Assembly: GCA_027371715.1 (NCBI GenBank)
Contig: DAHXMM010000020.1
Span: forward strand, 1-32,000
Reading direction: 5' to 3'
DNA length: 32,000 bases
Origin: Elusimicrobiota bacterium
GTDB lineage: Bacteria > Elusimicrobiota > Elusimicrobia > UBA1565 > UBA9628
A program made the translations under genes and the position numbers. Position 1 is the first letter of the stretch; each line of letters starts with the position of its first letter. The notes beneath the pieces are model-generated. The model did not search any database. It had not been told where the DNA came from and saw only the letters and a list, made by a program, of their open reading frames with translations. Shown piece by piece: positions 3-19,290 of the stretch.

Positions 3-3000
3 GGAGATCATCCGACATCTATTGGATCTATCTATGAAAGCCCAGATGGAGTCAATTGGAATTTAGTTTATGCGACTTCAACAGATGCCAATTTCGGGGC
101 TCTATCCGACTTTAACGGGCAACTCTATGCCGGCAGTGTCAATGGTTCAATCTATCAAATCACCCCCGTCGCCGCGACCTTGGCCGGCTCCGATGGGACC
201 AACGCCGCAGAGAAACTCTCGGCTACCGGCCTCAATCTCGTTCAATCCACAAGTACCGTGACCTGCGGCGGGGTTTCTCCTTGCGGGGCGACTGATCAAA
301 TCATATTCACCGCCTCAGATTTGGCGGGAAATGTTTTGGAAAGCGGCCCCTACGCAATTTTAGTCGATACCACCGTCGCTCCGGCAATCTCAACGCCTTC
401 CTATCCCTCAAACGGCGCCTATCTCAACTATCAGACGAATTTCAGCTGGATAGGGCCAAGCACGACCGTCGTCTCGGGGCTCTTGCCTCCTTCCTTTTAC
501 CAACTTGAAGTCTCAAACAACGATCCCACTTTCGCGACGACTTTCGTCAATATCTCAACACCCATTCCGCCGGTCAATACCGGGCTCGCCACCGACAACG
601 GCGCTTATATCTCGACTTACACGTTCGCGAATTTGACGACCTATTATTGGCGCGTGAGAACCGTGGACGGCTTTGGGGGGACCAGCCCCTGGTCCGAGAC
701 CTTCAATTTTACCACCGATTTTTCAAGTCCGACAGCTGTCAACGGAAGTTTCGCGACGCTCAACAGTCTTGGTGGACTCGTTCCAGAAACTCAGGTCACC
801 GTTCTCCAAAACGGGGTGACGGCTCAGCTCAACATCACCGACATCGGGAGCGGGTTTTCCGCATTCAACTCCACGGATTATTCCGTCAGATATTCCACCA
901 ACGCCGGCGCTGTCTGGATTTCAGATCCCTTTTCCGCCCTCGCTTTCACGGGCTTAATCGGCCAAACCTCGACCCAAACTTTCACGGCCTACGGGCTCAA
1001 TCTCGCCGCCTCAACCAACAGCATCGTCTGCGCCGGAATTTCTCCCTGCGGCGCCAGCAATCAAATTGAATTTACGTTTTCGGATCAGGCCGGTAATTTC
1101 ACTACAGCCGGGCCTTATGCCATCATCGTCGACACTCATTCAACCGACGTCTTGGTCTCAACCGCCGATGTCGCGCCCTTGGGAATTCCGCAAAACACCT
1201 CCGTCGCTTTTATCCGATTGACTTTAAACAGTCTCGCCGGAACGGCGCCCTGGACCGGTCTGACGGTTGAACGCCTGGGAAGCGGAACGGACTCGGATGT
1301 TCAAAACGTCGCCATCTACCGCGATTCCCTAGGGACCGGAATTTTCTCGCCCTCGGATACCCAAATCACTCAAAACGCGGTTTTTTCCGGAGGCGTAGTT
1401 AATTTGACGATGACTAATCCCGAGAGCATCACGACCTCGACCAAGACCTATTTCGTGGTCTATACCGCGGCCGCCGGGGCCTTGGTTGGAGACGGTCTCC
1501 AAGCGGAAATTACCTCGACCGCCTCATTTACCTTCAACGGCGGATACGCGATGAGCGCGGCCCAGACGACGATTTATCCCTTGATTTCCAGCACCGCGAC
1601 CGTCGTCGACGGCCCTAATTATCTCTACATCACACCCACAAGCAAGGCGCCCTCGGATGACCCGCCGGGAACCGCCAATATCGAGATGCTCGCCTTAAAA
1701 GCTTATACCAATACCGGAACAAGCACTCTTTCCAAAATCGTCTTTAATCTTTTGGGCACGGGCGCCTCTAATGACATCAGCGCCATCTCCATTTACCGCG
1801 ACTCAAACGGCACCGGAGTCTATGCTAATAACGACGAACTCGTCACCAGCGGTTCGGACGCCTTTTTAAACGGAGTTTCGACCGTCGCCTTCACGACCAC
1901 CATCGCCTCCGAAACCGTGACGACTTCTCCCATTTATTATTTTGTCCTCATCAGCTTGTCTCCGAACGCGCCTTTGGGAGACACGCTGGGAGTTTCCATT
2001 TCCACCCCGTCCAATGTCGAGCTCATCGACGTCTTGGATACGACCACCTTTACAAGCAACCCCGCCGCGTCTTCCCTACTAACTATCGAATACGTCAACA
2101 CCTTGAACGTCCAGGGCGCAAGCCAGATTCCGCCGTCTCTTTTGCAGGGGCAGGAATACGCGGTGTTAAAGGCGAGTTTCACTGTCTCAACAGGGGAAAC
2201 TGCCTTTGATGGAATGGATATCACGCGCCTGGGGCTCGGGCACGATTCGGATATTTCAGCCGTAAGGATTTGGCAGGACCCCAATCCGCCCGAGGCTTTT
2301 AACCCAGCCACTTTCCTTCAGTTGAGTTCCGGAAGCTTCGTCAACGGAAACGCGCAGCTAAACTTTCCGCTTCAAACCTTGTCGGCCGGAACGACCTACG
2401 TCTATTACGTCACCTATGATATCAGCCCCACGGCCACGCAGGGAGACACGTTGGGCGGACGCATTACCAGTAATCTGGATATCTCAGACACCAATCCCGG
2501 AACGACGATTGTCGGCAATTTCTCGATTAATTCGGCCACTTCCCCCGTGGTTCCAACGACCGCGGGGCTTTTTGTCGGCGCTCAAAACGTCGCCCCCAGC
2601 GATCTCTTGCAAGGCGCGACCAATCAACAAATGCTCAATTTGACGATGGATACCACTCAATACTCGGTTCTTTTGGGAGCTTTGACCTTTAATTCCTTGG
2701 GAACGGCGGCGTCTTCCGACATCTCGCGCGTTGAGGTCTATCAAGATCTAGTGGGAAACGGAATTCTAAATACCACCAAAGATCCTCTTTTATCGGCGCT
2801 CTCATATCCTTTTATATCGGGAACCGGCATCATCCCTTTTTCATCTGGAATTACCATCAGCACCATTTCCATCACTCTTTTGGTCGCGGTGGACGTCTCA
2901 ACCGGGGCCAACTATATCAATAACGATTTTGGAATCGGCATCGCGACCCAGGCCAATATTTCGATTAATTCTCCCAATTTCGTCGTTCCCTCAACGACCA

Positions 3001-4481
3001 CTTTCCCGGCTGATTCCGGCATTATTCCCATCACCAAGTCTCCGGATGTCTTGAGCGTATTTCCGACCAACCTTATCAACCCCGCCGGCGTCGTTCAAGG
3101 CCAAAACGCGCCGGCGACGGAACTCAGTCTGATCACCCAGCACAGTTCGGTGACCTGGACGACGATTGCCGTCCAAAGAAGCGGGACCTTGCCGGATTCG
3201 GGAGTTGATTCCGTCAATGTTTATTACGACGCCGATCAAAACGGGGTGTTTGATTCCTCGGACGTCTTGGTCGGAAGCGCGCCGTTTGTTTCCGGAACGG
3301 CTAACATTTCTTTTTCCACCGCTCAGCTGGTCAATCCCGGAGGTTCGGACTATTTCGTCACGCTTCAAATCGATCCGAACGCCACACCCGGAGATACCAT
3401 TGGAATTTCTCTCTCTGGAAATTCTAACTTTAAGGTTTTGCCTCCAGATACGGTTTCGGGATCGAGCCTTCCTTTTAATTCGGCCCTGGCGCCGGTCTTA
3501 AACATAAAAACTCCGATCACGCCCGTCGTCACATTCCCCAATGGAGATTTTTCCAGTTCCTTTGACTCCATCGGATTTATCTGGTATTCGACCGTCGCCG
3601 TCGGGTCTATTTCAAGCGCGGCCTATGCCGTAGGAACGACGCCCGGGGGAACCGATATTGCGCCCTACACCAATATCCCTTTCGCCGCTTCCAGCTTTAC
3701 CGCGGTCAATCTTCTGCTCAGTAACGGCGCGACCTATTACGTATCTGTCGAAGCGACGTCCAACTACGGTTTTACCAGTCCGCCGGGAACCAGCCCCGGG
3801 TTCCTGGTCGATTTGATTACGCCCATGCCGCCGAGTAGTTTGACGGCTAATGTCGGAGTCAGCTCGATTTATCTCACCTGGAATCCCGGCAGCGCGGGGC
3901 CCTCGGGACTCGCGGGATACCTGCTTGAATATTCCGATGTCGAACATCCGACCTGGTATAACGCGAAAACCGGAGCGGTCTCCGCCCTGGAGATGGGGAC
4001 TGTCCCTAACTCCGCCAGCCCGCATTCCGTCTTGTCGGCGAATTTTATTTCCGCTTCGCCGTTCTTGTTCAATAGCCCGCCGCAAGGAACTCTGATGTTC
4101 CGCGTCAGTTCAGTCAACGGCGCGGGGGTACAAAGCGCGCCTTCCGACACCATTCGCGTGCTTTTTGGGACGCAATCGACGGCGGGAATATCCAACGTTT
4201 CCTCCTATCCCAATCCCTTTAATTCTAATTCCGGCGTGGCCACCATCGTCTATACCTTGGACGCGCCGGGAAGCGTCTCGATTCAAATCTACAGCGTCTT
4301 TGGAAGTCTCGTCAAAAGTTTCTCTTATTCCGGTGGAGGCACGGGGGGAGAAGCCGGAGTCAACACCGTCACCTGGGATGGGACGGATTCCGGGGGCCGC
4401 AAAGTATCGAAGGGAATTTACATTGCCGTCCTTAAAGCCAACGGCATGAGCGTCCAATACAAGATCGGGGTCAATCACTGA
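3..4481 (+). CDS. Very large secreted/surface protein (5' end outside window): fibronectin-III-like domains, five repeated ~150-aa modules, C-terminal FlgD-Ig-like domain
   Basis: Listed ORF starts at an internal TTG (180), but the frame is open back to position 3 (GDHPTSIGSIYESPDGVNWNLVYATST...). C-terminus YPNPFNSNSGVATIVYTLDAPGSVSIQIYSVFGSLVKSF...GVNTVTWDGTDSGGRKVSKGIYIAVLKA resembles FlgD Ig-like/sorting-type domains; FnIII-like YYWRVRTVDGFGGTSPWS. Confidence 0.85.
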   Translation, partial: GDHPTSIGSIYESPDGVNWNLVYATSTDANFGALSDFNGQLYAGSVNGSIYQITPVAATLAGSDGTNAAEKLSATGLNLVQSTSTVTCGGVSPCGATDQIIFTASDLAGNVLESGPYAILVDTTVAPAISTPSYPSNGAYLNYQTNFSWIGPSTTVVSGLLPPSFYQLEVSNNDPTFATTFVNISTPIPPVNTGLATDNGAYISTYTFANLTTYYWRVRTVDGFGGTSPWSETFNFTTDFSSPTAVNGSFATLNSLGGLVPETQVTVLQNGVTAQLNITDIGSGFSAFNSTDYSVRYSTNAGAVWISDPFSALAFTGLIGQTSTQTFTAYGLNLAASTNSIVCAGISPCGASNQIEFTFSDQAGNFTTAGPYAIIVDTHSTDVLVSTADVAPLGIPQNTSVAFIRLTLNSLAGTAPWTGLTVERLGSGTDSDVQNVAIYRDSLGTGIFSPSDTQITQNAVFSGGVVNLTMTNPESITTSTKTYFVVYTAAAGALVGDGLQAEITSTASFTFNGGYAMSAAQTTIYPLISSTATVVDGPNYLYITPTSKAPSDDPPGTANIEMLALKAYTNTGTSTLSKIVFNLLGTGASNDISAISIYRDSNGTGVYANNDELVTSGSDAFLNGVSTVAFTTTIASETVTTSPIYYFVLISLSPNAPLGDTLGVSISTPSNVELIDVLDTTTFTSNPAASSLLTIEYVNTLNVQGASQIPPSLLQGQEYAVLKASFTVSTGETAFDGMDITRLGLGHDSDISAVRIWQDPNPPEAFNPATFLQLSSGSFVNGNAQLNFPLQTLSAGTTYVYYVTYDISPTATQGDTLGGRITSNLDISDTNPGTTIVGNFSINSATSPVVPTTAGLFVGAQNVAPSDLLQGATNQQMLNLTMDTTQYSVLLGALTFNSLGTAASSDISRVEVYQDLVGNGILNTTKDPLLSALSYPFISGTGIIPFSSGITISTISITLLVAVDVSTGANYINNDFGIGIATQANISINSPNFVVPSTTTFPADSGIIPITKSPDVLSVFPTNLINPAGVVQGQNAPATELSLITQHSSVTWTTIAVQRSGTLPDSGVDSVNVYYDADQNGVFDSSDVLVGSAPFVSGTANISFSTAQLVNPGGSDYFVTLQIDPNATPGDTIGISLSGNSNFKVLPPDTVSGSSLPFNSALAPVLNIKTPITPVVTFPNGDFSSSFDSIGFIWYSTVAVGSISSAAYAVGTTPGGTDIAPYTNIPFAASSFTAVNLLLSNGATYYVSVEATSNYGFTSPPGTSPGFLVDLITPMPPSSLTANVGVSSIYLTWNPGSAGPSGLAGYLLEYSDVEHPTWYNAKTGAVSALEMGTVPNSASPHSVLSANFISASPFLFNSPPQGTLMFRVSSVNGAGVQSAPSDTIRVLFGTQSTAGISNVSSYPNPFNSNSGVATIVYTLDAPGSVSIQIYSVFGSLVKSFSYSGGGTGGEAGVNTVTWDGTDSGGRKVSKGIYIAVLKANGMSVQYKIGVNH
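3996..4006. repeat. Dispersed palindrome GGGACTGTCCC (inside the large surface-protein CDS)
   Basis: gagatgGGGACTGTCCCtaactccgcc; read as EMGTVPNS. Confidence 0.9.
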
Positions 4482-5110
4482 CATGAAAAAAAAAGGGACA
4501 GTCCCTTTTTCGGCCGCCCCACATGAGAATCCAGCCCCATTTTCTTTCTTGTCTCCAGCTCACATCCATCATCCACGATATATTTGTAAATCTCCACTCT
4601 CTTTTGGGAAAAGTCAGCCAAAGACAAATAAGCGGGGCTCTCTTCCAAAAAAGGGGACTGTCCCTTTTCTCCCAAATAAAAGCGATAACTGGACCAAGAA
4701 TAATCTTCCGGTTTCCGCGCGATGGCCGCGCGCACGGGATTTAACTCGATATAGCGGCCGCAAAGAAGAAGACTTCGGTCCGTCGGCAATAAAACGCTTT
4801 TATAGCGCCCCTGCCAGAGATGCCCCACCGAGGAATTTTTCTCTCGGAAATAATCGGAATACCCCTGTAAAAGCTTTTGCATCGCCTTGCTCAGGTCTTC
4901 CGGCTTTTGAACCTGGACCAAGAGATGAATATGGTTGGGCATCAGAACATAATGATGGATCCGAAAAGGATTTTTCACCTTGCTCCACCGCAGAATGTCC
5001 AAAAATCTCTCATAATCGGCTGTTTCATGGAACACGGCTTGACGATTATTCCCGCGCGCCATCAAGTGGTAAAACCCTCCTTCAATCAAATGTCTCCCGC
5101 ATCTTGACAT
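4475..5110 (-). CDS. REP-associated tyrosine transposase (RAYT, Y1_Tnp/IS200-like family)
   Basis: HUH motif in HYVLMPNHIHLLVQV, downstream GYSDYFREKNSSVGHLWQGRYKSVLL and YIELNPVRAAIARKPEDYSWSSYRFYLG, characteristic of RAYTs. Confidence 0.92.
   Translation of the reverse strand: MSRCGRHLIEGGFYHLMARGNNRQAVFHETADYERFLDILRWSKVKNPFRIHHYVLMPNHIHLLVQVQKPEDLSKAMQKLLQGYSDYFREKNSSVGHLWQGRYKSVLLPTDRSLLLCGRYIELNPVRAAIARKPEDYSWSSYRFYLGEKGQSPFLEESPAYLSLADFSQKRVEIYKYIVDDGCELETRKKMGLDSHVGRPKKGLSLFFSCQ
4495..4505. repeat. GGGACAGTCCC, A/T-flanked copy (inside RAYT 3' end)
   Basis: aaaaaGGGACAGTCCCttttt. Confidence 0.9.
4654..4664. repeat. GGGACTGTCCC inside RAYT CDS
   Basis: aaaaaaggGGACTGTCCCtttt; RAYT residues EKGQSPFLEE. 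Confidence 0.9.
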
Positions 5111-5186
5111 ATCAGAGTCTCCCCTTATCCGAATTATCTCCTACCTCTCATACGTCAAAAACGAGAAAAAAGTTCCCTCAAAAAAA

Positions 5187-5197
5187 GGGACAGTCCC
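5187..5197. repeat. GGGACAGTCCC, A/T-flanked copy
   Basis: AAAAAAGGGACAGTCCCTTTTTT perfect palindrome 5181-5203. Confidence 0.9.
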
Positions 5198-5205
5198 TTT
5201 TTTCA

Positions 5206-6765
5206 TTGATTCTAAACAAAAAAGGGACAGTCCCTTTTTTCTTATTTCTACTTCTCTCCTCCATATCGGCATCGGCCGCGAGCTTCTATGCGGGTTCTCC
5301 CAACGAGATATTTCAATTCGGCGCGGATGCCAGGGCCATGGGCATGGGCAACGCCTACACCGCCATTGCCGGTGGAGCGTCTTCCCTTTATTACAACCCG
5401 GCGGGCCTCGGTCTTCTCAATGGCCCCGATGTCAGCGCCATGCAGGCCAGTCTTATTGGCGGCGCGGCCTATGAAGATTTATCCTACGCCCAAAATTTCT
5501 CAAAAATGCCGGGAGCTTGGGGCGTTGAAGCCCTCAATATGGGAGTGGGAGGGGCCGAGCAAAGAGACTCTCAAAATAATCTCACCGGAAGCTTTGGTTT
5601 TCAAGAAACCGGATACGGAGCGGGATTTGGCCTAAGGAATGTCGTCATTCCGAACTTATCCTTGGGAGGCTCTTTTCAGGGGCTCAGCCGAAGCTTGGGC
5701 GGTAGTTCTTCCGACATGCTCTATGGAGCGAATTTGGGAGCCCAGTACGGCCCCTTTTTGGACAATATGGTGACCGCGGGTTTGGTCCTCCAAAACGGTT
5801 TTAACGGAGCGCAAAATACCTTTGACCGGCTACCCACGGTTTTACGCGCAGGGCTCGCCGTCACTCCCATCAATAATCTTCTCATTTCCGCGGATTACGG
5901 CGATGATGGCGATTACGGAATCGGCGCGGAATATCGAATATGGATGTTCGCCATACGAGCCGGATATATCCCCCAAGGCCTCACCTTCGGCGCCGGAATC
6001 TATTATCAATCTCTGGAAGCCGATGTCGCGATGGTCAACGATCCAATTTTTGGAATGGGGGAGAGATTCTCGCTTAATTACCGATTCGCGGGAAAGAAGA
6101 AAGAAAAGCCTCTTGAAGCTTACACTAATAGTTATCTGGATGCCGCAAAAAAAGAATTAAGTCTCCGCAATTATCTCAGCGCGCAATTCGCGCTTGAAGA
6201 AGCGATGGGAGTCTCTCCCGCTCAGATTCCTCAGACATGGAAAGAAAAACTCAAACTTCTTCAAGCTTTTAATGGCAGCCTAGATCTCAAAAACCGTCCG
6301 GATGAGGTCAAAACTCTCCTTGCAAAAGATCAACCGGCCATACTCGCCCAAAAATCGGTTTTTTCTTATTTAAACGGACGCGACGGAGACGCCATGATTT
6401 GGGCGTCCGTGGCAGCCGGAACCGCTCATAAATCCATGCCCTATATTGACTTTGTCAAGACGATGGCTTATCTTACGAATATGAAGGTTTCGGAAGGGGA
6501 TTTATTGCCTCCACCAGATTATGTTTCCAAAAAAATGGAGACTGCTCTTCATGCTATTTATCAAAAGCGTTTTGCCAATGCGGTTAAAAATTGCCAACAG
6601 GCCATCGTGGTAAACCCGAAAGAGCCTTCTGCCTGGACGCGGCTGGGTAGCGCTTATTTTGCCTGGGGACATAAGGATGAAGCCAAAAAAGCCTATCAGA
6701 AAGCTTTAGAGCTTGATCCCAAGAACGAAAATTTAAAGAAATTTATGGAGATGTATATCAAATGA
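5206..6765 (+). CDS. PorV/PorQ (UPF0164)-like outer-membrane beta-barrel protein with C-terminal TPR repeats
   Basis: FYAGSPNEIFQFGADARAMGMGNAYTAIAGGASSLYYNPAGLGLLNGPDVSAMQASLI is typical of the PorV-like family; C-terminal EPSAWTRLGSAYFAWGHKDEAKKAYQKALELDPKNENLKKF is a TPR. The track ORF starts at 4483, but 4483-5205 is antisense to the RAYT. TTG 5206 gives MILNKKGTVPFFLFLLLSSISASA/ASF, a plausible signal peptide. Start uncertain. Confidence 0.8.
   Translation: MILNKKGTVPFFLFLLLSSISASAASFYAGSPNEIFQFGADARAMGMGNAYTAIAGGASSLYYNPAGLGLLNGPDVSAMQASLIGGAAYEDLSYAQNFSKMPGAWGVEALNMGVGGAEQRDSQNNLTGSFGFQETGYGAGFGLRNVVIPNLSLGGSFQGLSRSLGGSSSDMLYGANLGAQYGPFLDNMVTAGLVLQNGFNGAQNTFDRLPTVLRAGLAVTPINNLLISADYGDDGDYGIGAEYRIWMFAIRAGYIPQGLTFGAGIYYQSLEADVAMVNDPIFGMGERFSLNYRFAGKKKEKPLEAYTNSYLDAAKKELSLRNYLSAQFALEEAMGVSPAQIPQTWKEKLKLLQAFNGSLDLKNRPDEVKTLLAKDQPAILAQKSVFSYLNGRDGDAMIWASVAAGTAHKSMPYIDFVKTMAYLTNMKVSEGDLLPPPDYVSKKMETALHAIYQKRFANAVKNCQQAIVVNPKEPSAWTRLGSAYFAWGHKDEAKKAYQKALELDPKNENLKKFMEMYIK
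5224..5234. repeat. GGGACAGTCCC, A/T-flanked copy overlapping a predicted signal peptide
   Basis: AAAAAAGGGACAGTCCCTTTTTT perfect palindrome 5218-5240. Confidence 0.9.
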
Positions 6766-6900
6766 AAGAAACGGAAAGTAAAAGAAAGTTACGGAAAGAA
6801 AATGAAAGAAACAGAAAAAGGCCTTACCTTGCTCTTCGTTCCTTTCTGTTGCTTTCCGTTACTTGCCGTTGCTTTCCGTTTCTTGCCGTTGCTCGCCGTT
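6761..6900. repeat. Inverted pair of imperfect 20-bp tandem arrays (three purine-rich units, then three pyrimidine-rich units)
   Basis: 6761-6820: aatgaaagaaacggaaagta / aaagaaagttacggaaagaa / aatgaaagaaacagaaaaag. 6841-6900: cctttctgttgctttccgtt / acttgccgttgctttccgtt / tcttgccgttgctcgccgtt. The reverse complement of unit 1 shares CTTTCCGTTTCTT with 6872-6884. Confidence 0.75.
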
Positions 6901-6903
6901 GCT

Positions 6904-6913: not shown

Positions 6914-9430
6914 ATGGACATCTTAATGATCGTTTTTATTCCCAGTCTTTTTATCATCCTGGGAGCCCTAATGTTTATCGTCAGCCGGGTGATGGAATTC
7001 TCGCAATCCAATCGTTATTTCGCAAAACAAAGAGGAAACAGCCTTATGTTTACGCGTTTCATGACTCAAATTGCCATGGCCAAAAGCCAACTTGGAAAAA
7101 GAGCCCAGGAATTGGAAGCTCTGTCCATGCGCCTTCAAATGAATAACGAAGAACTTGCCCGGCTCAACAACCTCAAAATGAAATTCTTATCAATGGCGGT
7201 TCATGATATTCGAAATCCACTCACCGCTATTACCGGTTACAGCGACATTTTGTCTCGCAACAAAAATCTAGGACCCAAAGAGCAGGTTTTGTCAAAAATG
7301 ATTTTGACCGCGACCCGGCAAATCAACCATCTGATGGGAGATCTCACCGATCTCGCCGTCATCGAAGCGGGAAAATTTAAAATGGAAATGGCGCCCTTTG
7401 ATCTGGCCGGACTCATCCAGGAAGTAGGGGCCACTTTGACCCCGGGAGCCTCCAACAAAGGCGTCATTCTTTCTGTTCGAGAACCTCCGCCCGGAATTAT
7501 CATCACCGCCGACCGCTACCGCATTTGGCGCGTTTTGACGAATCTTTTGGGAAATGCCGTTAAATTTACCCCTTCTGGAGGACGCGTCGAACTCCGGGCC
7601 GAAGTCGCGGCGGGAATGGCCATGATTTCAGTCCAAGACAACGGCCCCGGGATTCACCCGACCGAACGGCGGAAAATTTTTGAAAAGTTCTACCAGTCAA
7701 AACACATCAAAGATGAAAAAGCCCGCAAGGGCGGCTGGGGATTGGGACTGGCCATCGCCCAAGAAATTGTTCAGTCCCACGGGGGAGAAATCGGAGTCGA
7801 CAGCCGTGGTCTCGGACACGGTTCTACTTTTTGGGTTCGCATTCCTCTTAAAGCCAAGCGCCCCATCCGCTCCAGCCCCATGCGTCTTGCGCTCGCTTTA
7901 ATCGGGTTTTTAGCGCTCTCTTTGGCGCCGAAAAAAACTCAGGCTCAAACTGTTCCCTTCCTTGAAAAATCAAAATTCGAAAAATCATTGGAAACCAAGG
8001 TGGACGGAGTCCTTCTCAATATCTTGGGGCCCAATCGAGCCAAAGTCATCATCAACGCGACCCTCAATTTCACAAAAACCGAAAGCTTTCAAACCGAAGG
8101 CGCCAGCATCACGACGACAAAAACCTCGGGGCTTCCGTATCTTTGGCAAGAACCCAGTAAAACGGCGCAACCCGAAGAGTTGCTACCGGGAGTGCCGCTT
8201 GATTCCGGCGGCCCGGCTCTTCCCACGCCGCCGCCATCCATCAAGGGCTATAAAAAAGAAGATTCCTTCCCCGCCGAATTTATCAAAAGATTAGACGTCA
8301 CTCTCATTTTGGATAATTCCGTCAAGGGAAACCGGAGCGCCGAAATCGGCAAAATTACGGCCGATCTTCTCAGTCTCAATCCTAAACGAGGAGATTCTCT
8401 GACCGTGGTCCACACCGAGTTTTCTCCGATCTGGAAAACCGTTTGGTACTCTCCGGAAACTGCCGGTATGCTTCTTAAATATATTTTAACCGGATTTCTC
8501 TTTTTTATGGCGCTCATCGTCATCGCCGTCGGATTTATCAAAATCGCCAACGCCATGCGCATGATGGCCAACGCACAATCCCAGCAAATCTCAATGGAAA
8601 TGAAGGGGCTTGATGGCGAGGGGGGAAATGGACCGGGCGGAGTTTTAGGACATAATACGCTCATGATTGGGGATCAGAAATCGGGAGAAAACGCCCCTGA
8701 AAACAAAAACGAACCGGTCATGTTTGACGTGCGAATGGACCAAGTAGAAACCCTGGCTCAAATGCTTCTCCCCGAACCACCTGAAAATGTCGCCATTGTT
8801 GCCTCGCGCTTGACTCCGGATGTTTCAAAAAGGCTCATCGACGCCCTCCCGCCGGAACTGGCGAGCGCGGTCGTCAGTCAACTCGCCCGCCCGCGCTTTA
8901 TCGATCCGGAAATTATCGTCAACTTAAAGGAAGAGTTAGAACGGCGTCTTTCCGGCGCGGTCGGAGGAGTGCATTATCTCGCGGAACTGATGTCGGCCGC
9001 CAGCCAAAAAAGGCGTCATGAAATGCTGGAAGCCGTTCGCTCTCAAAACCAAAACCTCGCCGAGGAACTCAGAAAACGAGTCTTTTTCATCGAGGATCTC
9101 TCAAAACTAACCCAACAAGAATGGTCGTATCTCTTGTCCTTGGTCACTTATCAAGAATGGAGCGCCGGTCTCCATGAGGGTCCCCAAGTCGTCGTTGAAG
9201 CCATCAAACAAAATGTCTCAGAAAAAGCCTGGGGGGTTCTCAGCGAGATGATTGAAGCGGCTTCTCCCACAACAGAACAAACAGAAACGGCGCAAGATAA
9301 AATCGGTCAAAGCGTCTCAGAACTCATCCGGGAACAAAGAATCAAAACCATTGCGCCGCAATTGGGACTTCAAATTCATGAATCTCCAGTTGAAGAAGAA
9401 AAAGGCGCGGAAAGTAGTAAGGGCTCGTGA
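6914..9430 (+). CDS. Histidine kinase (HisKA-HATPase_c) fused in frame to FliF C-terminal-like periplasmic domain, a TM helix and FliG-like M/C domains
   Basis: N-terminal TM MDILMIVFIPSLFIILGALMFIVSRV; H-box SMAVHDIRNPLTAITGYSDIL; N-box NLLGNAVKFTPSGG; G1 VQDNGPGI; G2 GGWGLGLAIAQEIV. Then TM/signal-like MRLALALIGFLALSLAP; FliF_C-like FEKSLETKVDGVLLNILGPNRAKVIINATLNF and IKRLDVTLILDNSV...AEIGKITADLLSLNPKRGDSLTVVHTEFSP; TM LLKYILTGFLFFMALIVIAVGFI; FliG-like ENVAIVASRLTPDVSKRLIDALPPELASAVVSQLA...GGVHYLAELMSAASQKRRHEMLEAVRSQNQNLAEELRKRVFFIEDLSKL...QNVSEKAWGVLSEMIE. The track start at 6863 precedes the better RBS-supported ATG at 6914. Confidence 0.85.
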   Translation: MDILMIVFIPSLFIILGALMFIVSRVMEFSQSNRYFAKQRGNSLMFTRFMTQIAMAKSQLGKRAQELEALSMRLQMNNEELARLNNLKMKFLSMAVHDIRNPLTAITGYSDILSRNKNLGPKEQVLSKMILTATRQINHLMGDLTDLAVIEAGKFKMEMAPFDLAGLIQEVGATLTPGASNKGVILSVREPPPGIIITADRYRIWRVLTNLLGNAVKFTPSGGRVELRAEVAAGMAMISVQDNGPGIHPTERRKIFEKFYQSKHIKDEKARKGGWGLGLAIAQEIVQSHGGEIGVDSRGLGHGSTFWVRIPLKAKRPIRSSPMRLALALIGFLALSLAPKKTQAQTVPFLEKSKFEKSLETKVDGVLLNILGPNRAKVIINATLNFTKTESFQTEGASITTTKTSGLPYLWQEPSKTAQPEELLPGVPLDSGGPALPTPPPSIKGYKKEDSFPAEFIKRLDVTLILDNSVKGNRSAEIGKITADLLSLNPKRGDSLTVVHTEFSPIWKTVWYSPETAGMLLKYILTGFLFFMALIVIAVGFIKIANAMRMMANAQSQQISMEMKGLDGEGGNGPGGVLGHNTLMIGDQKSGENAPENKNEPVMFDVRMDQVETLAQMLLPEPPENVAIVASRLTPDVSKRLIDALPPELASAVVSQLARPRFIDPEIIVNLKEELERRLSGAVGGVHYLAELMSAASQKRRHEMLEAVRSQNQNLAEELRKRVFFIEDLSKLTQQEWSYLLSLVTYQEWSAGLHEGPQVVVEAIKQNVSEKAWGVLSEMIEAASPTTEQTETAQDKIGQSVSELIREQRIKTIAPQLGLQIHESPVEEEKGAESSKGS

Positions 9431-9498
9431 CAAAATAATAACAGTCTCTATTTACTTCGTCATTTCTTCATGATTCAATACCATTTTTGTTCTATCCT

Positions 9499-10443
9499 AT
9501 GGGTATGGCTGAAAGTCCGAAAGGTTCCATCTTTTCCTCCTTAAGGGCGCTGGAAGAAATTCCGGAAGAAACTCCCGCCGCGCCTCCGACTTCGCAAAAC
9601 CCTTCACCCTCTCCCACCCCCGCCGCACAAACACCAACGCCCACGCCGCCACCTTCGCAAGCGCCTCCTCCATCAGATGAGACTTTGAAAGCCGTGGAGT
9701 CAAAAATCGAAAAGTTAGAACAAAAAATCCAGGAGATGGGGACAGTCCCCAATTCAGACCCTCATCTTAACCGTATTGAAGCCCTGGAGCAAAAATTGCA
9801 ACAAATGCAGGAACGCGCCATTCAGGCGGAGGTCGCTCTCAGAGAGCGCGAGAAATCCCAAGAAGCCGCCCGGCGCGAGACGGAATCTCTTCTTCAAAAT
9901 TTAGCGTCCCAGCGCCGGCTTGAAGAATCGGACCGGCAAATGAAGGAAAATCTGGCTTATTGCCGACGCCGAATCGAAGAATTGGAGGAAAAACAATCCT
10001 CTATTAAAATTCCGGATACCCAACAATCGGAAAATGAGTTTAAATCCCTCCTAAAAAGTTTTATGGAACAGATCGAGCTAAAAACAACTCCGGTTTTAGC
10101 GTCTCTTGTTGATCTCAGGAAAGAAAATGAAAACCGCGAAAAAGAAAATCGCGGCATGGAGCAAAGGATAAACGAGATTGAGAAAAATATCAATTCTTTT
10201 TTTTCGACAGAGTTAGGGCAAGCGAGCGCTCTAGCAGAAGGATTACGCCACCTAAAACAAACCGTGGAACGAGTCAACACGGAAACCGCGGAAAAACTCG
10301 AAAAAATAAGCGCCGCTCTAAGCCTATTAGAATTTAGGCATTCCCAAGCGAAAAACACAACAGAAGAATTACGCGCTCTCGATAAAGACTTTCAGAAAAT
10401 ACTCTCCATTCTCGATGCCAGCGTTTCCAACTCGCCCAAATAA
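9499..10443 (+). CDS. Pro-rich linker plus long coiled-coil protein, no recognised family
   Basis: PSPSPTPAAQTPTPTPPPSQAPPPS, then heptad-rich ETLKAVESKIEKLEQKIQE...; ATG 9499 preferred over TTG 9487. Confidence 0.75.
   Translation: MGMAESPKGSIFSSLRALEEIPEETPAAPPTSQNPSPSPTPAAQTPTPTPPPSQAPPPSDETLKAVESKIEKLEQKIQEMGTVPNSDPHLNRIEALEQKLQQMQERAIQAEVALREREKSQEAARRETESLLQNLASQRRLEESDRQMKENLAYCRRRIEELEEKQSSIKIPDTQQSENEFKSLLKSFMEQIELKTTPVLASLVDLRKENENREKENRGMEQRINEIEKNINSFFSTELGQASALAEGLRHLKQTVERVNTETAEKLEKISAALSLLEFRHSQAKNTTEELRALDKDFQKILSILDASVSNSPK
9739..9749. repeat. GGGACAGTCCC inside coiled-coil CDS
   Basis: TGGGGACAGTCCCCA 9737-9751; read as EMGTVPNS. Confidence 0.9.
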
Positions 10444-10444
10444 A

Positions 10445-10455
10445 GGGATAGTCCC
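10445..10455. repeat. Degenerate copy GGGATAGTCCC between coiled-coil gene and motA
   Basis: One mismatch; directly after stop codon TAA. Confidence 0.7.
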
Positions 10456-10500
10456 TATTAGTATTTGGAATTCTCTTTTCTTTCCTATATAATAAGCAAC

Positions 10501-11238
10501 ATGGAACTAACATCGATCATCGGTCTAGGGGCTATTCTAATTTTAACTGCGATTGGCCTTGCCACTGGAGGGCTTCCGGCGGTTTTCATCAACTGGCATG
10601 GAATTGGAATCGTGCTTGGGGGAACTTTTTGCGCCCTCATGATCAACACCCCACTGGATATTTTGCTCAGAACCGGATCGTCTGTGACCGATTTAATTTC
10701 GGCCGATCCTTATGTCGACCGGATCGCTCTTGTGGACGCCATCATGACACTAGCACAAGAGGTTCAATCCCGGGGAATTAACGCCTTTAACAATGTCAAT
10801 AAAACAGTGGCCGCCGGGTATCTCGCTTACGCCGCTCAAATCGCGGTTGAATATAACAACCCTGAAACCCTCCGACAGGTGCTGGAAAATGAGATCATTC
10901 AAAATTCCGATTTACAGAACGAAGCGGTCAACGTTTTTAGAACCGCCGGAATTTTGGCGCCGATGTTCGGACTTTTGGGAACCTTAATTGGAATTGTCGA
11001 GGTTCTGCGCCAAATCGCCAACCCCGCACAAGTGGGTTCCGCCATGGCGGTCGCCATTACGACCGCTTTTTATGGCATCGCGACCGCAAACGTTTTTTGC
11101 GTGCCGATAGCCGGTAAACTAAGAATTCGCTACTGGAGAGAAACGCAGGCCAAGACCATGATTTTGGAAGGCGTCTTTGAAATCCTCCAGCGAACGCCCG
11201 CCGTCATTATCTCGCGGAAACTGAAATCTTATCTATGA
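10501..11238 (+). CDS. motA: MotA-like stator proton/ion channel subunit (MotA/TolQ/ExbB superfamily)
   Basis: MELTSIIGLGAILILTAIGLATGGLPAVFINWHGIGIVLGGTFCALMINTP; AGILAPMFGLLGTLIGIVEVLRQIANPAQVGSAMAVAITTAFYGIATANVFCVPIAGKLRIR. Confidence 0.9.
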   Translation: MELTSIIGLGAILILTAIGLATGGLPAVFINWHGIGIVLGGTFCALMINTPLDILLRTGSSVTDLISADPYVDRIALVDAIMTLAQEVQSRGINAFNNVNKTVAAGYLAYAAQIAVEYNNPETLRQVLENEIIQNSDLQNEAVNVFRTAGILAPMFGLLGTLIGIVEVLRQIANPAQVGSAMAVAITTAFYGIATANVFCVPIAGKLRIRYWRETQAKTMILEGVFEILQRTPAVIISRKLKSYL

Positions 11239-11269: not shown

Positions 11270-11962
11270 ATGAGACGCTCAAGGCACGAAGACCTCGAAA
11301 ATCAGCTTGCGAAATCCGCCCAATGGGCCATTACCTATGGGGATTTCATGAGTTATCTCATGATTTTCTTTCTCATCATGTTTTCTTTCACGCTTTCAAA
11401 ATCCGGAGGGAAAACTACGGAAAACGTTAAGTATCAGGAATCCCTCATTAAAATTCAGAAGGTCTTTGGCGGGAAGGGAAGCTCCGTGGATTATGATCGC
11501 CTGATTAAGCGCGAAAAAGAAGAGTCCATGGTCACCCAACTTAAACAAGCTCTTGATAAAAAGGATTTGTCAAAATACGCGAAAATAGAAACCTGGGATA
11601 AAAAAATTCGACTCATCTTAGCCAGCGCGGTTCTTTTTGACTCCGGCCGAGCAAGCTTAGCCCCGCGATCGGAAAAAATTTTAGCCGCCGTCGCCCAACA
11701 ACTTAAAACCTTGGACAACCCGATTCAAATTGAAGGGCATACCGATAACGTTCCTATTAACGGCGGACGCTATAAATCCAATTGGGAACTTTCAATGGCG
11801 CGCGCCTACTCAGTTCTCGTTTTTTTTGAGAAACAAGGCATCGCGCCTCAACGTTTGTCCGCCATCGGCTACGGCCAATATCACCCCATCGCCGACAACA
11901 AAACGCCGGAAGGACGCGCTAAAAATCGTAGAATCGAGATAGATTTATTACGGACGGAATGA
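11270..11962 (+). CDS. motB: MotB-like protein (MotB plug + OmpA peptidoglycan-binding domain)
   Basis: WAITYGDFMSYLMIFFLIMFSFTLSKSGG (single TM with conserved Asp) and IEGHTDNVPINGGRYKSNWELSMARAYSVLVFFEKQGIAPQRLSAIGYGQYHPIADNKTPEGRAKNRRIEI. Confidence 0.9.
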   Translation: MRRSRHEDLENQLAKSAQWAITYGDFMSYLMIFFLIMFSFTLSKSGGKTTENVKYQESLIKIQKVFGGKGSSVDYDRLIKREKEESMVTQLKQALDKKDLSKYAKIETWDKKIRLILASAVLFDSGRASLAPRSEKILAAVAQQLKTLDNPIQIEGHTDNVPINGGRYKSNWELSMARAYSVLVFFEKQGIAPQRLSAIGYGQYHPIADNKTPEGRAKNRRIEIDLLRTE

Positions 11963-11976
11963 AAGGGAGATCAAAA

Positions 11977-12999
11977 ATGAAAGAATTGTGGGCTATTCTC
12001 TGCACCATCCTAGTCTTGCCGGTCGCGGCTTTTTCAGCCGCCTCATCCGGAACGAATAATTCGAACACTGCCCCTTATCAAGGAGCCACGGCGCCGCATC
12101 CAAAACTTCCGCAAGATCCTTATCTCACGGCCCTTGACGACATCAAAAGCCCGATTCCCTCGGTTCGTTTGGCGGCAGTTCAAGTTTTAGCTCAAAACCG
12201 TAATCCTGCCTCCATCGCGCCTCTGACCCAAGCCCTTTCCGATAAAAACCCGGCGGTCTGCGCCGCCGCCATTCACGCCTTGGGTCTTTTAAGGGTTAAG
12301 GCCGTAGCTCCAAAAATCGCGCAACTTTTAGCCACCTCCCAAGCTTCCCAAGTCAGGCAAAACGCCGCCGTCGCCTTGGCTTATCTGGCCGATCCGGCGG
12401 CCATCCCCACCTTAATTTCCGCTATTTCCGATTCTCATCGAAGCGTTCGCTATGCGGCAATTAAAACCTTGGGCAGTCTCCACGCCCAGGCTGCATTACC
12501 GGCCCTCATTAACACGCTTAAAAGTTCAAACGCTAATATCCGAGAGACCGCCGCTGCGGCCCTGGGGCAAATTCAATCTCCAAAAGCCTCATCCGCCCTT
12601 GCCGCTTTAACGACCGACCCCAACATCCAAGTTCGAGAGGCCGCCGTCATCGCGCTTGGTTCAACCGGAGGCAAGACCGCCATCTCGCCCCTCCTCAAAG
12701 CGCTTAAGGATTCGAATTTTTCCGTCAGTCTTGATGCGGCCCGCTCTCTTTCAAAACTGGGAAATTTTAAGGGAAAAAGCGTCGCGCTCAAGGGATTGAG
12801 CCAAAAAAACTCCTTTCTCAGGCAAGAAGCCGTCACGGTTTTAGGAATGACCGGAGGGAAAAAAGCTCTCCTTGCGCTTGAAAAACTTTCTAAAAAAGAA
12901 AAAGATCCCGCGACGATTAGCCTCATTGGTTTTGCCGAAGCCCAAATCAAGGGACGCCTTGGAATAAGACCCACGCCTCCTCAATCGCGCAAAAAATGA
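11977..12999 (+). CDS. Exported HEAT-repeat protein
   Basis: Signal peptide MKELWAILCTILVLPVAAFSAA; tandem HEAT units (PSVRLAAVQVLAQ..., SQVRQNAAVALAYLAD..., RSVRYAAIKTLGSLH..., IQVREAAVIALGSTG...). ATG 11977 with upstream GGGAG. Confidence 0.85.
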   Translation: MKELWAILCTILVLPVAAFSAASSGTNNSNTAPYQGATAPHPKLPQDPYLTALDDIKSPIPSVRLAAVQVLAQNRNPASIAPLTQALSDKNPAVCAAAIHALGLLRVKAVAPKIAQLLATSQASQVRQNAAVALAYLADPAAIPTLISAISDSHRSVRYAAIKTLGSLHAQAALPALINTLKSSNANIRETAAAALGQIQSPKASSALAALTTDPNIQVREAAVIALGSTGGKTAISPLLKALKDSNFSVSLDAARSLSKLGNFKGKSVALKGLSQKNSFLRQEAVTVLGMTGGKKALLALEKLSKKEKDPATISLIGFAEAQIKGRLGIRPTPPQSRKK

Positions 13000-15011
13000 G
13001 ACGCCTCTTCGGCCTTTTCTTTTCGCTGGCCTTAAGTTTTCTTTTTATCTTTCTTTATCGGCCAGCCATATTTGAACTCCAAGCCAACGATGTCTTTAAT
13101 AATCTGGAAAACTCTTGGCAGGATTTTCTTTTTCGCGTCAATAGAAATCACCTAAAGCACGGAGACCCTCGCATCATCATCGCGGCCATTGATGATCCCA
13201 CCCTTCATCAATACGGATACCCGCTTCCTAGAATAATTTATGCGAAGCTCTTAGATCGTCTTCACGAGTTAAAAGTCAAGACCGTGGCCTTCGACGTCCT
13301 TTTCGCGGACCCCCGAAAAGGAGATTCTGATTTAGCGCGCGCTCTAGGGAAATTTAATAAAAGCGTTCTCGCCTATGCTTATGATCAAAACAGTTCCGAA
13401 CATTTCGTTTTGCCCACGCGCCCGCTCTATCAAGCCGCAAAAAGACTTGGGTATGTCAATGTGGGAAATTGCATAGATCCTGATGGGCATATCCGAGAAT
13501 TTCAAATTTTTCAGTCTTCTTTTAAAAACCCAAAAACAAATTCGATGGGAGAAGCTCTCTCGGTTCCGACGCTCGCCTATTTTACAGGGCAACTCTTTGA
13601 AAAGACCACCGGCCTCGGCCCAACCGACGCGCATTTCTACATTAATTTTAGGCCGCCTACTTATGCCAACGATCAAGACGTGCTGTTCTCTTATCCCGTT
13701 TTTTCCATCGCCAAGATTTTAAGCAAAAACCTTCCGCAAAAAGAGAAAGATGCTTTAAAAGGAGCCTTAGTTCTTGTCGGCTCAACCGCCCTTTCCGCTT
13801 TCGATCATTATCCCTCGCCCTTTAGCGATGCCAGTCCCGGAGTCGAATATCACGCTAACATTCTGGACAATCTTCTTCATCGCAACTGGATGCGCCCCTT
13901 TTCGCCTTTTTATCAGATATTCATCATACTTTTGTTTATCTGGCTTCCCTTTTTTCTGAGACGCGCGCCGACGCAGTGGGAAACGTTTTCGGTTTTTGGG
14001 GTTTTCTTGGCCTGGCTTTGTTTTTGCGAATGGCAATTTTTGAAAGGAGTTCGCGTGGAATTCGTCCTACCCTCTGCCGCTCTTTTGACGTCTTTTGTCG
14101 GCGAAACTATCCATCAAGCCTTGACCGAGGGGCGGGAGAAAAAATTCATCAAGAACTTATTTACTCAATTTGTCTCTCCCGAAGTGGTTGAGGACCTCGC
14201 CAAAAACCCTGACAAAATTAAACTGGGGGGAGAAAAAAAAGACATGACGGTTCTTTTTTTGGACATCGCCCATTTTACCAGCATCTCAGAAAAAATGTCG
14301 CCGGAAGAACTCATCAAGTTTCTCAATCTCTATCTCTCGCGTTTGAGCCAAGTCATTTACGATTACGGCGGGGTCGTTGATAAATATATTGGAGACTCCA
14401 TCATGGCTTTTTGGAACGCTCCATTAGAAGTAAAATCCCATCGCATGAAGGCCTGCCTTGCGGCGTTATCCCTTCAAGACGCCGTTTTAGAACTCAACAA
14501 AAATCTGCCTTCAAGCATCCCACATCCACCTCAAGTGAGAATTGGAATCAATTCCGGCATTGTCACCGTGGGCCTTACTGGAAGCGAACATAAACTTCAA
14601 TATACCGTGATCGGAGATGAAGTTAATTTAGCCTCTCGCCTTGAAGGGGCCAATAAGTTTTTTAAATCGCAGACCATGATCAGCGAAGCCGTTTACGCCG
14701 AAGCCAAAGCGGAAATAGAGGCTCGGGAAATCGGGATTATCCGCGTTCTTGGGAAAGAAACCCCCATCAAGACTTATCAGATTCTGGCTCGAAAAGGAGC
14801 GCTTTCCCGCTCCTGGAAAACAGCCCTTCCGATTTACAATCAAGCGCTTCAAGACGTACGAAACAAGGAATACGTCAATGCCATCCATCTTTTTGAAACT
14901 TTCCTTAAAATTATTCCCAATGACGGAACCGCCTCATTTTATCTCTCCGCTTGTAAAAAAGCCCAAGAGAGCACTCCATGGGATGGAATTATTCATCTGA
15001 CCTCTAAATAA
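12996..15011 (+). CDS. CHASE2-sensor class III adenylate/guanylate cyclase with C-terminal TPR
   Basis: Periplasmic CHASE2-like IIIAAIDDPTLHQYG.PLPRIIYAKLLDRLHELKVKTVAFDVLFADP; cyclase MTVLFLDIAHFTSISEKMSPEELIKFLNLYLSRLSQVIYDYGGVVDKYIGDSIMAFWNAP; GDEVNLASRLEG. Overlaps the HEAT gene stop (ATGA). Confidence 0.92.
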   Translation: MRRLFGLFFSLALSFLFIFLYRPAIFELQANDVFNNLENSWQDFLFRVNRNHLKHGDPRIIIAAIDDPTLHQYGYPLPRIIYAKLLDRLHELKVKTVAFDVLFADPRKGDSDLARALGKFNKSVLAYAYDQNSSEHFVLPTRPLYQAAKRLGYVNVGNCIDPDGHIREFQIFQSSFKNPKTNSMGEALSVPTLAYFTGQLFEKTTGLGPTDAHFYINFRPPTYANDQDVLFSYPVFSIAKILSKNLPQKEKDALKGALVLVGSTALSAFDHYPSPFSDASPGVEYHANILDNLLHRNWMRPFSPFYQIFIILLFIWLPFFLRRAPTQWETFSVFGVFLAWLCFCEWQFLKGVRVEFVLPSAALLTSFVGETIHQALTEGREKKFIKNLFTQFVSPEVVEDLAKNPDKIKLGGEKKDMTVLFLDIAHFTSISEKMSPEELIKFLNLYLSRLSQVIYDYGGVVDKYIGDSIMAFWNAPLEVKSHRMKACLAALSLQDAVLELNKNLPSSIPHPPQVRIGINSGIVTVGLTGSEHKLQYTVIGDEVNLASRLEGANKFFKSQTMISEAVYAEAKAEIEAREIGIIRVLGKETPIKTYQILARKGALSRSWKTALPIYNQALQDVRNKEYVNAIHLFETFLKIIPNDGTASFYLSACKKAQESTPWDGIIHLTSK

Positions 15012-18459: not shown

Positions 18460-18490
18460 CAAAGCCCTTAAACTTCTCTAAGATAAAACC

Positions 18491-19165: not shown

Positions 19166-19170
19166 AAAAT

Positions 19171-19242
19171 TGGGCCGTAGAGGATTTGAACCTCTGACAT
19201 CTGTCGTGTGAGGACAGCGCTCTACCGCTGAGCTAACGGCCC
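19171..19242 (-). tRNA. tRNA-Val (anticodon CAC), no encoded CCA
   Basis: Reverse complement folds as GGGCCGT TA GCTC AGCGGTA GAGC G CTGTC CTCACAC GACAG ATGTC AGAGG TTCAAAT CCTCT ACGGCCC A; 7-bp acceptor, anticodon loop CT-CAC-AC. Confidence 0.95.
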
Positions 19243-19279: not shown

Positions 19280-19290
19280 TAACTCTGATC

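Follow-up and report, generated by a model that had tools for sequence, protein, structure and literature searches.

An open reading frame (ORF) in a stretch of 32,000 nucleotides from an Elusimicrobiota bacterium (assembly GCA_027371715.1, contig DAHXMM010000020.1, positions 1 to 32,000), referred to here as the window, encodes a histidine kinase which is followed, in the same frame, by FliF-like and FliG-like domains of the flagellar rotor. The best explanation of this gene, with a probability of roughly 60%, is that it couples a dedicated kinase to a MotAB-driven FliF/FliG ring outside the flagellum. Together, the gene and its neighbours suggest an undescribed, proton-driven machine of the cell envelope, which uses the parts of the flagellar motor outside the flagellum. 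To our knowledge, FliG and FliF are known solely as flagellar parts, and literature searches recovered no description of a kinase-FliF-FliG fusion, of the FliF-FliG family, of the gene cluster, of a non-flagellar FliG, or of a link between FliG and PorV. An earlier interpretation, made from the letters of the DNA (the sequence-only reading), had proposed that the fusion could be a "signalling rotor", an idea which is compatible with the comparative data presented here, and which is strengthened by the recurrence of the linkage between the kinase and rotor genes.

The frame is unbroken from the ATG at position 6914 to the stop codon at 9428-9430. The start is assigned to this ATG because a GGAGG motif lies 6 nt upstream and the N-terminus (ME or MD) falls in the same column of the alignment in 16 of 17 homologues; on the same grounds, the longer alternative, from the TTG at 6863, is unlikely. 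A homologue search with the FliF-FliG part as the query returned 18 proteins, of which 16, with 819-876 amino acids (aa), have the kinase and all of the rotor domains, at identities ranging from 93% down to 38%. These fused homologues come from the NCBI, ENA, JGI, and Logan assemblies. A second search, with a profile of the family, yielded one further protein, and an exhaustive profile search recovered more fused representatives (P0021, P0022, P0024, P0025, P0033, and P0034), together with fragments. The junction between the kinase and the rotor part is conserved in length across the fused homologues, and a methionine is absent from it in most of them. The fusion is genuine, because the open frame is kept in more than 20 proteins from independent assemblies, with a junction of conserved length and no conserved Met, and the ORF is, on this comparative evidence, a genuine and evolutionarily maintained gene of the Elusimicrobiota. 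The order of the domains, from the kinase to the FliF-like and then the FliG-like part, and the call of a single gene agree with the sequence-only reading, and five Pfam domains were recognised, each above its gathering cut-off, including YscJ_FliF_C, FliG_M, and FliG_C.

The N-terminal part of the protein is, to judge from its conserved residues, a bona fide class I (HisKA) histidine kinase. The kinase boxes, which had been read as complete, stand up to the alignment of 18 sequences, in which His97 is invariant and the residues of the N, G1, F, and G2 boxes (N210, N214, D242, G244, G246, F256, G274, G276, and G278) are invariant or nearly so. The first transmembrane segment (TM1) leaves only approximately four residues outside, and a long helix (residues 2-115 in the AlphaFold2, or AF2, model) then leads to the dimerization and histidine phosphotransfer (DHp) domain. 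No sensor domain was recognisable in the Pfam and profile scans of the protein.

The part that follows the junction has the features of the S-ring domain of FliF, and the FliF-type peptide IKRLDVTLILDNSV...SLTVV, noticed previously, is indeed present in frame. The YscJ_FliF_C match scores 26-28 bits against a cut-off of 23.8, and Foldseek pairs the model with the RBM3/S-ring structures of FliF (E ~6e-6, TM-score on the target of 0.5-0.57), one of which, 8ftf, is a 33-mer ring of RBM3 alone. The periplasmic fold is alpha-beta-beta, insertion, beta-beta-alpha-beta, over approximately 175 aa, which corresponds to RBM3 only, and this short length, together with the lack of any match to RBM1/RBM2 (YscJ_FliF, PF01514) at E<=1, bears out the earlier view that the N-terminal, ring-building part of FliF is absent. 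To this must be added the loss of FliG_N, for which the sole match overlaps FliG_M/C (aa 623-713) with 22.5 bits against a cut-off of 25 in the full protein, and for which there is no room between the third transmembrane segment (TM3) and FliG_M. The RBM3 insertion of approximately 47 aa (aa 397-443) is poorly modelled, and has conserved YLW and ELLPGVP motifs, while an RGD motif near the end of the domain is near-invariant across the rotor family. From this homology, we infer that the RBM3 domains may form a ring.

Of the pair of membrane helices that is typical of FliF, the C-terminal one is clear, while the N-terminal one has the anatomy of a signal peptide, and may be cleaved. A disordered linker of approximately 45 aa joins TM3 to FliG_M, and this covalent link between FliF and FliG replaces the contact of the flagellar proteins, between the C-terminus of FliF and FliG_N. 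The FliG part matches the T. maritima FliG_MC in its sequence (E 3e-20), and Foldseek also finds FliG (E 5e-9) with the AF2 model of aa 323-838, which has a predicted local distance difference test (pLDDT) score of 67, with 75-89 in the folded domains. The positions of E. coli FliG (EHPQR; R281, D288, and D289) serve here as the reference for the window protein. The FliM-binding EHPQR motif is degenerate, with EPPEN... and a Q at the Arg position in the window, and a family consensus of E.PAN. The torque helix of the window has K and E at the equivalents of R281 and D288, and M at that of D289; family-wide, G or N often occupies the basic position, and an acidic residue is usually retained at one of the others. 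Overall, then, RBM3 is the feature of FliF that was found, with no RBM1/2, FliG_N-binding C-terminal peptide, or gene context of a flagellum's type III secretion system (T3SS), while FliG is represented by FliG_M, FliG_C, and the Gly-Gly hinge, with neither FliG_N nor EHPQR.

The FliF(RBM3)-FliG family is represented by 216 proteins (clusters at 50% identity) at E<1e-30, most of them with 480-650 aa and kinase-free. For the named members, the annotations go no further than "FliG C-terminal domain-containing protein" or "hypothetical", and all are assigned to the Elusimicrobiota, except for one on a 4.9-kb contig binned to an archaeon. In four loci (L007, L013, L014, and L015), an orthologous, split kinase of 311-344 aa is encoded in the same operon as an unfused rotor gene, and these kinases are 44-52% identical to the window kinase over their whole length, including the N-terminal membrane segment. 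The fusion would result if a stop codon were lost from an arrangement such as that of L014, with the kinase gene directly upstream of the rotor gene. A neighbour-joining tree built from the rotor parts places the fused forms in one clade, and the split-kinase forms in or next to that clade. The kinases found near the unfused rotor genes of L008 and L016 were discarded as support for this linkage, given that they are different kinases, with 27-31% identity and other architectures.

The cytoplasmic helix that follows TM3 has the consensus LKLAgAM..MA.aQ..Q.sME, which is kept in the kinase-associated clades, and is absent from the clades without this kinase. The rotor protein of L015 has the motif, and its locus also has the kinase. 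The helix is a candidate for the element that couples the rotor to the kinase. Other appendages are found elsewhere in the family, such as C-terminal cytoplasmic TPR repeats in the unfused members P0077, P0086, and P0099 (L009 10001-11923), and N-terminal extensions of 220-300 aa, with no known domain, in P0027, P0042, and P0055. Different modules have evidently been added to the rotor protein on repeated occasions.

The stator encoded in the cluster is of the flagellar type. The closest solved relatives of MotA are the C. sporogenes MotA (3e-26), the Bacillus-type MotA, and PomA (1e-23), the TolQ/ExbB score is far below that of the flagellar MotA/PomA, and the channel prolines P154 and P202 are invariant. 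In MotB, MotB_plug scores 38 bits and OmpA 79 bits, and the NCBIfam scores of both MotA and MotB are below the equivalog cut-offs. The proton channel and the kinase core are both apparently competent, as far as their conserved residues indicate. A Zorya or other defence system was also considered and rejected, given that MotA has no ZorA match in PADLOC, ZorB is matched only through generic MotB/OmpA similarity, and the other PADLOC matches are to generic domains.

The genes of the cluster are all on the same strand, mostly with short or overlapping boundaries, and the same neighbours are found in L004, L005, L010, L011, L012, L013, and L015, as well as in the kinase-free L008 and L009. The distant fused loci (L004, L005/6, L010, L011, and L012) share the order of a giant protein, a TPR protein, the kinase-FliF-FliG protein, an unknown or coiled-coil protein, MotA, and MotB, although the contig of L011 stops before MotA/MotB. 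The giant proteins of these loci range from 2679 to 6602 aa, several of them truncated by the end of the contig or locus, and have Laminin_G/fn3/FG-GAP and FlgD_ig domains, while the TPR protein has approximately 510 aa. In the window, the giant protein has a FlgD_ig domain above the Pfam cut-off, and the listed ORF of 1433 aa is only its C-terminal part, because the open frame reaches back to base 3, and the homologue in L001 has at least 2203 aa. Of the unfused loci, L008 encodes a Kelch protein of 3850 aa and a UPF0164+TPR protein, and L009 encodes a protein of 14454 aa, together with a TPR protein, FlbD, MotA, and two MotB-like proteins. The FlbD homologue of L009 (14592-14810) is directly upstream of motA; FlbD is a small protein which is usually encoded alongside the flagellar stator genes. 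The 32-kb window contains no other flagellar genes. The sequence-only reading needs a correction as to the setting, which is not a flagellum, but a conserved cluster with a PorV-like/TPR protein, a giant protein, a coiled-coil protein, and MotAB. The coordinates of these features are presented in Table 1.

Table 1. Features of the kinase-FliF-FliG gene, its cluster, and the regulators encoded in related loci (positions are those of the window, unless a locus is named).
Feature	Coordinates	Strand	Remarks
Kinase-FliF-FliG ORF	6914-9430	+	838 aa: TM1, coiled coil, HisKA, HATPase_c, signal-peptide-like segment, FliF RBM3, TM3, linker, FliG_M, FliG_C
TM1, aa 5-23	6926-6982	+	Hydropathy 2.82; K/R after the segment; conserved in split kinases
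HisKA (DHp), aa 88-153	7175-7372	+	Pfam, 49 bits; invariant phospho-acceptor His97
HATPase_c, aa 200-313	7511-7852	+	Pfam, 95 bits; conserved N, G1, F, G2 boxes
Junction, aa 313-344	7850-7945	+	Basic n-region (KAKRPIRSSPMR), 14-aa hydrophobic core, Pro, TQA|Q
Periplasmic FliF RBM3-type (S-ring) domain	7946-8428	+	Pfam YscJ_FliF_C at aa 457-503; Foldseek; conservation
TM3, core aa 524-542	8471-8548	+	Out to in; hydropathy and AF2 model
Juxtamembrane cytoplasmic helix (FIKIANAMRMMANAQSQQISMEM), aa 543-565	8540-8608	+	Conserved only in kinase-associated clades
FliG_M, aa 612-682	8747-8959	+	Pfam, 42 bits; followed by invariant Gly-Gly hinge, G684 G685
FliG_C (torque) domain, aa 707-810	9032-9343	+	Pfam, 49 bits; VFFIEDL = FliG MFxF region; torque helix SEKAWGVLSEMI
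Giant surface protein, C-terminal part	3-4481	+	Cut by window edge; ends in FlgD_ig / type IX secretion system (T9SS) type-A-like sorting domain
PorV/PorQ-family outer-membrane barrel with C-terminal TPR repeats	5185-6765	+	Directly upstream of kinase/rotor gene, conserved; exact start uncertain
Pro-rich coiled-coil cytoplasmic protein	9487-10443	+	Conserved, system-specific partner; ~75-aa core common to loci
Flagellar-type MotA/PomA subunit	10501-11238	+	Likely start ATG 10501; listed ORF opens at TTG 10465
MotB: plug, transmembrane segment with YGDF Asp, OmpA-type peptidoglycan-binding domain	11270-11962	+	Pfam
HEAT-repeat protein and CHASE2 nucleotide cyclase	11959-15011	+	Extension seen only in close relatives L001/L002
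CheY-like receiver	L005 15411-15806(-); L010 15168-15551(+); L012 12868-13242(-)		Beside motB
OmpR-type winged-helix regulator, degenerate receiver	L004 15112-15816; L010 14467-15171; L012 13245-14033(-)		Beside motB

Given the conserved cluster, the kinase coupled to a MotAB-driven ring can be pictured as follows. The RBM3 domains would form a ring in the inner membrane, with a ring of FliG_M/C below it, and the MotAB units, anchored in the peptidoglycan and conducting protons, would act on FliG_C. On its periplasmic face, the ring would engage, perhaps by way of the ELLPGVP insertion, the TPR domain of the PorV-like barrel, which would hold the sorting domain of the giant protein, and this coupling would serve secretion, anchoring, or movement. 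The kinase would be held on the ring, either covalently or, following a cut between A344 and Q345, as a neighbouring membrane protein with two helices, and would report the assembly or working state of the ring to a response regulator. The output would pass through the CheY-like receiver and the OmpR-type regulator, which are encoded beside motB in the distant loci and not in the window. In this scheme, the comparisons show the identities of the domains, the conservation of the fusion, the split orthologues, the gene cluster, and the anatomy of the signal peptide, while we infer the formation of the ring, its rotation, the coupling to the outer membrane, the cleavage, and the direction of the signalling. 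The most complete version of this scheme, in which a stand-alone, non-flagellar rotary engine (the RBM3-FliG ring and MotAB) drives or gates the PorV-like protein and the giant adhesin for gliding or secretion, while the kinase of the same precursor reads the assembly or load of the ring, can be put forward only tentatively.

A number of observations weigh against the coupling of a dedicated kinase to a ring of this type. The charges of the contact between the stator and the rotor (MotA R90/E98, and the equivalents of FliG R281/D288/D289) are only partly kept in the clade. In the MotA region LAQEVQSRGINAFNN, the equivalents of R88/K89/E96/E97 of PomA are replaced by Q/S and N/N (QSRG...NN); the other MotAs of the kinase clade have a K or R near the Gly and no acidic pair, while the distant L009 keeps RARTEG...LER. 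The loss of the MotA charges may reflect co-evolution with the altered torque helix of FliG. More generally, the interface between the stator and the rotor may have changed, or the generation of torque may not be the function. The matches to PorV (PorV/PorQ family, E 2.5e-20, 73 bits against a cut-off of 90) and to the C-terminal sorting domain (Por_Secre_tail, 22 against 23 bits) are just below the NCBIfam cut-offs, and the AF2 models, which are derived from shallow alignments, are only moderate (pLDDT of 65-67). In addition, no response-regulator gene adjoins the cluster within the window.

Among known systems, the flagellar rotor of FliF and FliG, with MotAB or PomAB, shares homologous RBM3, FliG_M, and FliG_C domains with the window system, as well as the Gly-Gly hinge, a PomA-like MotA, and a MotB with the plug, the Asp, and the peptidoglycan-binding domain. 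In contrast with the flagellar rotor, the window system has no RBM1/RBM2, FliG_N, or FliM/FliN, and no nearby export, rod, hook, or filament genes; its FliF and FliG parts form a single polypeptide with a kinase attached, the charge pairs are partly kept, and the neighbours are the PorV-like and giant proteins. A covalent chain of FliF and FliG can still form S-ring structures, as in the PDB entries 8z4d and 8z4g, which we take to be laboratory constructs. These constructs contain full-length FliF and FliG in one chain, whereas the window protein is natural and truncated, without RBM1/2 and FliG_N.

A precedent for the proposed role of the kinase is FlgS of Campylobacter jejuni, which co-precipitates with FliF/FliG, and depends on them (PMC3760246). 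In the FlgS/FlgR checkpoint, as in the window, the kinase has no classical sensor domain, and the signal for FlgS is the assembled FliF/FliG ring. However, FlgS is soluble and separate, and belongs to a true flagellar system, being T3SS-dependent, whereas the window kinase is anchored in the membrane and shares its ORF or, in the split forms, its operon with the rotor protein, with no T3SS genes in the window or the related loci.

The gliding and T9SS machinery of the Bacteroidota (GldLM, PorV, SprB, and SprF) also has a proton motor of the MotAB superfamily that is genetically linked to a barrel of the PorV family and to a giant surface protein ending in a sorting domain, although the motor is composed of GldL/GldM, rather than flagellar-type MotAB and a FliF/FliG ring. 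True membership of the T9SS was rejected, given that the core components (GldK/L/M/N, SprA, and PorU) were not found among the window ORFs, and that the PorV and sorting-domain scores are sub-threshold; the resemblance is an analogy of layout. The TolQR, ExbBD, AglRQS, SiiAB, and ZorAB systems likewise use a proton motor of the MotAB superfamily to energise a process in the envelope, and SiiAB also serves a giant adhesin, but none of them is known to use FliG/FliF, and the window MotA is far nearer to the flagellar MotA/PomA. The layout resembles that of the proton-motor machines that serve giant adhesins (GldLM/SprB and SiiAB/SiiE), but with the flagellar pair of rotor and stator.

The alternative that survives best concerns the nature of the coupling. 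The topology predicted by the sequence-only reading, with the kinase in the cytosol, the FliF part in the periplasm, and the FliG part in the cytosol, holds overall, but its second membrane segment has the anatomy of a signal peptide with an A|Q site, and the mature products may be two. In the hydropathy scan, aa 5-23 and 524-542 are strong membrane segments, while the middle segment has only a 14-residue hydrophobic core, and is not scored as a full membrane helix. In the 17 fused sequences examined here, four or five K/R residues invariably precede this segment, the uncharged core has 10-21 residues (14-16 in 12 of them, and 14 in the window), and a Pro or Gly breaker follows the core in most cases. 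Position -3 is A, S, T, G, I, or L, while Ala at -1 and Gln at +1 are found in every sequence (17/17). In the split rotor orthologues, the N-terminus is an ordinary signal peptide, with the homologous A|Q bond at its end, and this correspondence indicates that the "second membrane segment" was once the signal peptide at the N-terminus of the rotor protein.

Given this anatomy, the ORF may encode a precursor that is cut by signal peptidase I at a putative site between A344 and Q345, in which case the fusion would exist only in translation, and would give rise to a kinase and a rotor protein. This prospect is given slightly less than even odds. The products would be a hairpin kinase with two membrane helices (aa 1-344) and a mature, single-pass RBM3-TM-FliG protein of the same form as the product of the split genes, and the purpose of the fusion would be to have both made in equal amounts and inserted together, and not to keep them mechanically joined. 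The A|Q layout common to all of the fused sequences, the homologous end of the signal peptides of the split orthologues, and the sub-threshold hydropathy of the junction all speak for cleavage. On the other side, the invariant A-Q-T could instead be needed for structural reasons where the RBM3 domain begins, and natural internal cleavage by a bacterial signal peptidase I is rare. The cytochrome b/c1 precursor FbcH of Bradyrhizobium, which is cleaved at an internal signal peptide, is the only bacterial precedent known to us, and a literature search for such a precedent in bacteria returned viral polyproteins only. A cleaved precursor would be compatible with a dedicated kinase coupled to a MotAB-driven ring, and would alter only the kind of coupling. 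The production of two membrane proteins from one precursor at such an internal site would, if real, be a rarity among bacteria.

A second alternative reverses the direction of the signal, with the kinase as an input to the motor. In this case, the kinase would phosphorylate a CheY-like regulator at the ring, which would bind FliG, in the place of FliM/FliN, to brake, clutch, or reverse the motor. A single-domain, CheY-like receiver is encoded next to motB in three distant kinase-fused loci (L005, L010, and L012), and is 64-66% identical between these loci, where the rotor proteins are far more divergent. The receiver and the OmpR-type regulator are, on the evidence of their position, candidate partners of the kinase. 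While the conservation of the receiver, the absence of FliM/FliN, and the degenerate FliM-binding motif of FliG_M would all suit an input of this type, the kinase has no recognisable sensor domain and, therefore, no obvious independent input, the OmpR-type DNA-binding regulator of the same loci suggests a transcriptional output, and the window has no such receiver nearby. Orthologues of the CheY-like receiver and the OmpR-type regulator are both absent from the window. The only receiver in the window (26411-26788, on the minus strand) was rejected as a cognate regulator, being only 25-29% identical to the conserved, cluster-linked receiver, and not its orthologue. Control of the motor by the kinase is less likely than the reporting of the state of the ring by the kinase, but is a serious rival to it.

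In the window itself, motB is followed by a secreted HEAT-repeat protein (11959-12999) and a CHASE2 adenylate/guanylate cyclase (12996-15011), both on the plus strand, with overlapping stop and start codons. In L001 and L002, two ORFs that correspond in size and order are found after motB, and these are absent from the distant loci. This pair may link the machine to cyclic-nucleotide signalling here, in the place of the CheY-like and OmpR-like pair.

The possibility that the protein is an ordinary, though unusual, flagellar FliF/FliG with an attached regulatory kinase is very improbable. In its favour, flagellar proteins are the best matches throughout, for FliG, FliF, MotA, and MotB alike, FlbD is present in one related locus (L009), and some Elusimicrobiota, albeit few, own complete sets of flagellar genes (10.1101/2022.07.08.499144). 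Against this, the protein lacks RBM1/RBM2 and FliG_N, its FliM-binding motif is degenerate, and no flagellar export, rod, hook, or switch gene was found in the window or in 16 related loci, the conserved neighbours being the PorV-like and giant proteins instead. A preprint on magnetotactic Elusimicrobiota, furthermore, reports motAB, flbD, and fliG in free-living members of the phylum which have no flagellar structural genes, and describes their role as "unclear" (10.1101/2022.07.08.499144).

Finally, an artefact in which separate kinase and FliF-FliG genes were joined by a sequencing error that lost a stop codon can be dismissed with near certainty, because, even though L014 has a split version in the same gene order and an in-frame ATG is found at 7880, a missed stop or frameshift at this point is ruled out by the open frame kept in independent assemblies and sources, at identities down to 38%, and the ATG, at a junction of conserved length, has no ribosome-binding site, as had been pointed out previously, and no counterpart Met in the distant homologues.

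Some further observations refer to the spacers of the cluster. The region between the PorV-like gene and the ribosome-binding site of the kinase gene (6766-6884) contains a hairpin of approximately 120 nt (-55.5 kcal/mol, z -5.4), with arms formed by an array of purine-rich decamers (6760-6817) and a complementary pyrimidine-rich array (6837-6903). A palindrome similar to repetitive extragenic palindromic (REP) elements replaces the hairpin at the same position in the close relatives L001 and L002, and this intergenic spacer is therefore variable. An IS200-like Y1 transposase gene (4475-5110, on the minus strand), whose location is shared by L001 and L002, has on its flanks copies of the palindrome AAAAAAGGGACAGTCCCTTT, located at 4489-4511, 4648-4670, 5181-5203, and 5218-5240, with a degenerate copy at 10439-10458 (nine matches, against zero expected). 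This layout is that of a REP element with a REP-associated tyrosine transposase. These palindromes, which reach into the 5' end of the PorV-like gene, are the source of the recurring "KKGTVPF" peptide in the spurious upstream frames. Further downstream, a run of genes for aromatic amino-acid catabolism (16924-22142, on the plus strand), which encode an aromatic amino acid lyase, a protein of the fumarylacetoacetate hydrolase family, a weak homogentisate dioxygenase-like protein, and a flavin reductase, is apparently unrelated to the motor cluster.

If the scheme of a stand-alone engine with its own kinase is true, a FliG/FliF rotor would be recorded outside the flagellum for the first time, as would a kinase built into a rotor. 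A minimal set of FliF/FliG and MotAB, with no export apparatus, rod, hook, filament, or FliM/FliN, would mean that the torque core of the flagellum can be a separable module, reused for another function of the envelope, which bears on the evolutionary assembly or dismantling of the flagellar motor. With approximately six genes, the cluster would offer a natural system for studies of the coupling between the stator and the rotor, and the built-in kinase makes it possible to test whether a two-component kinase can read the assembly or the mechanical state of a membrane ring. In the Elusimicrobiota, a machine of this type could explain the orphan motAB, fliG, and flbD genes of the non-flagellated, and possibly surface-motile, members of the phylum.

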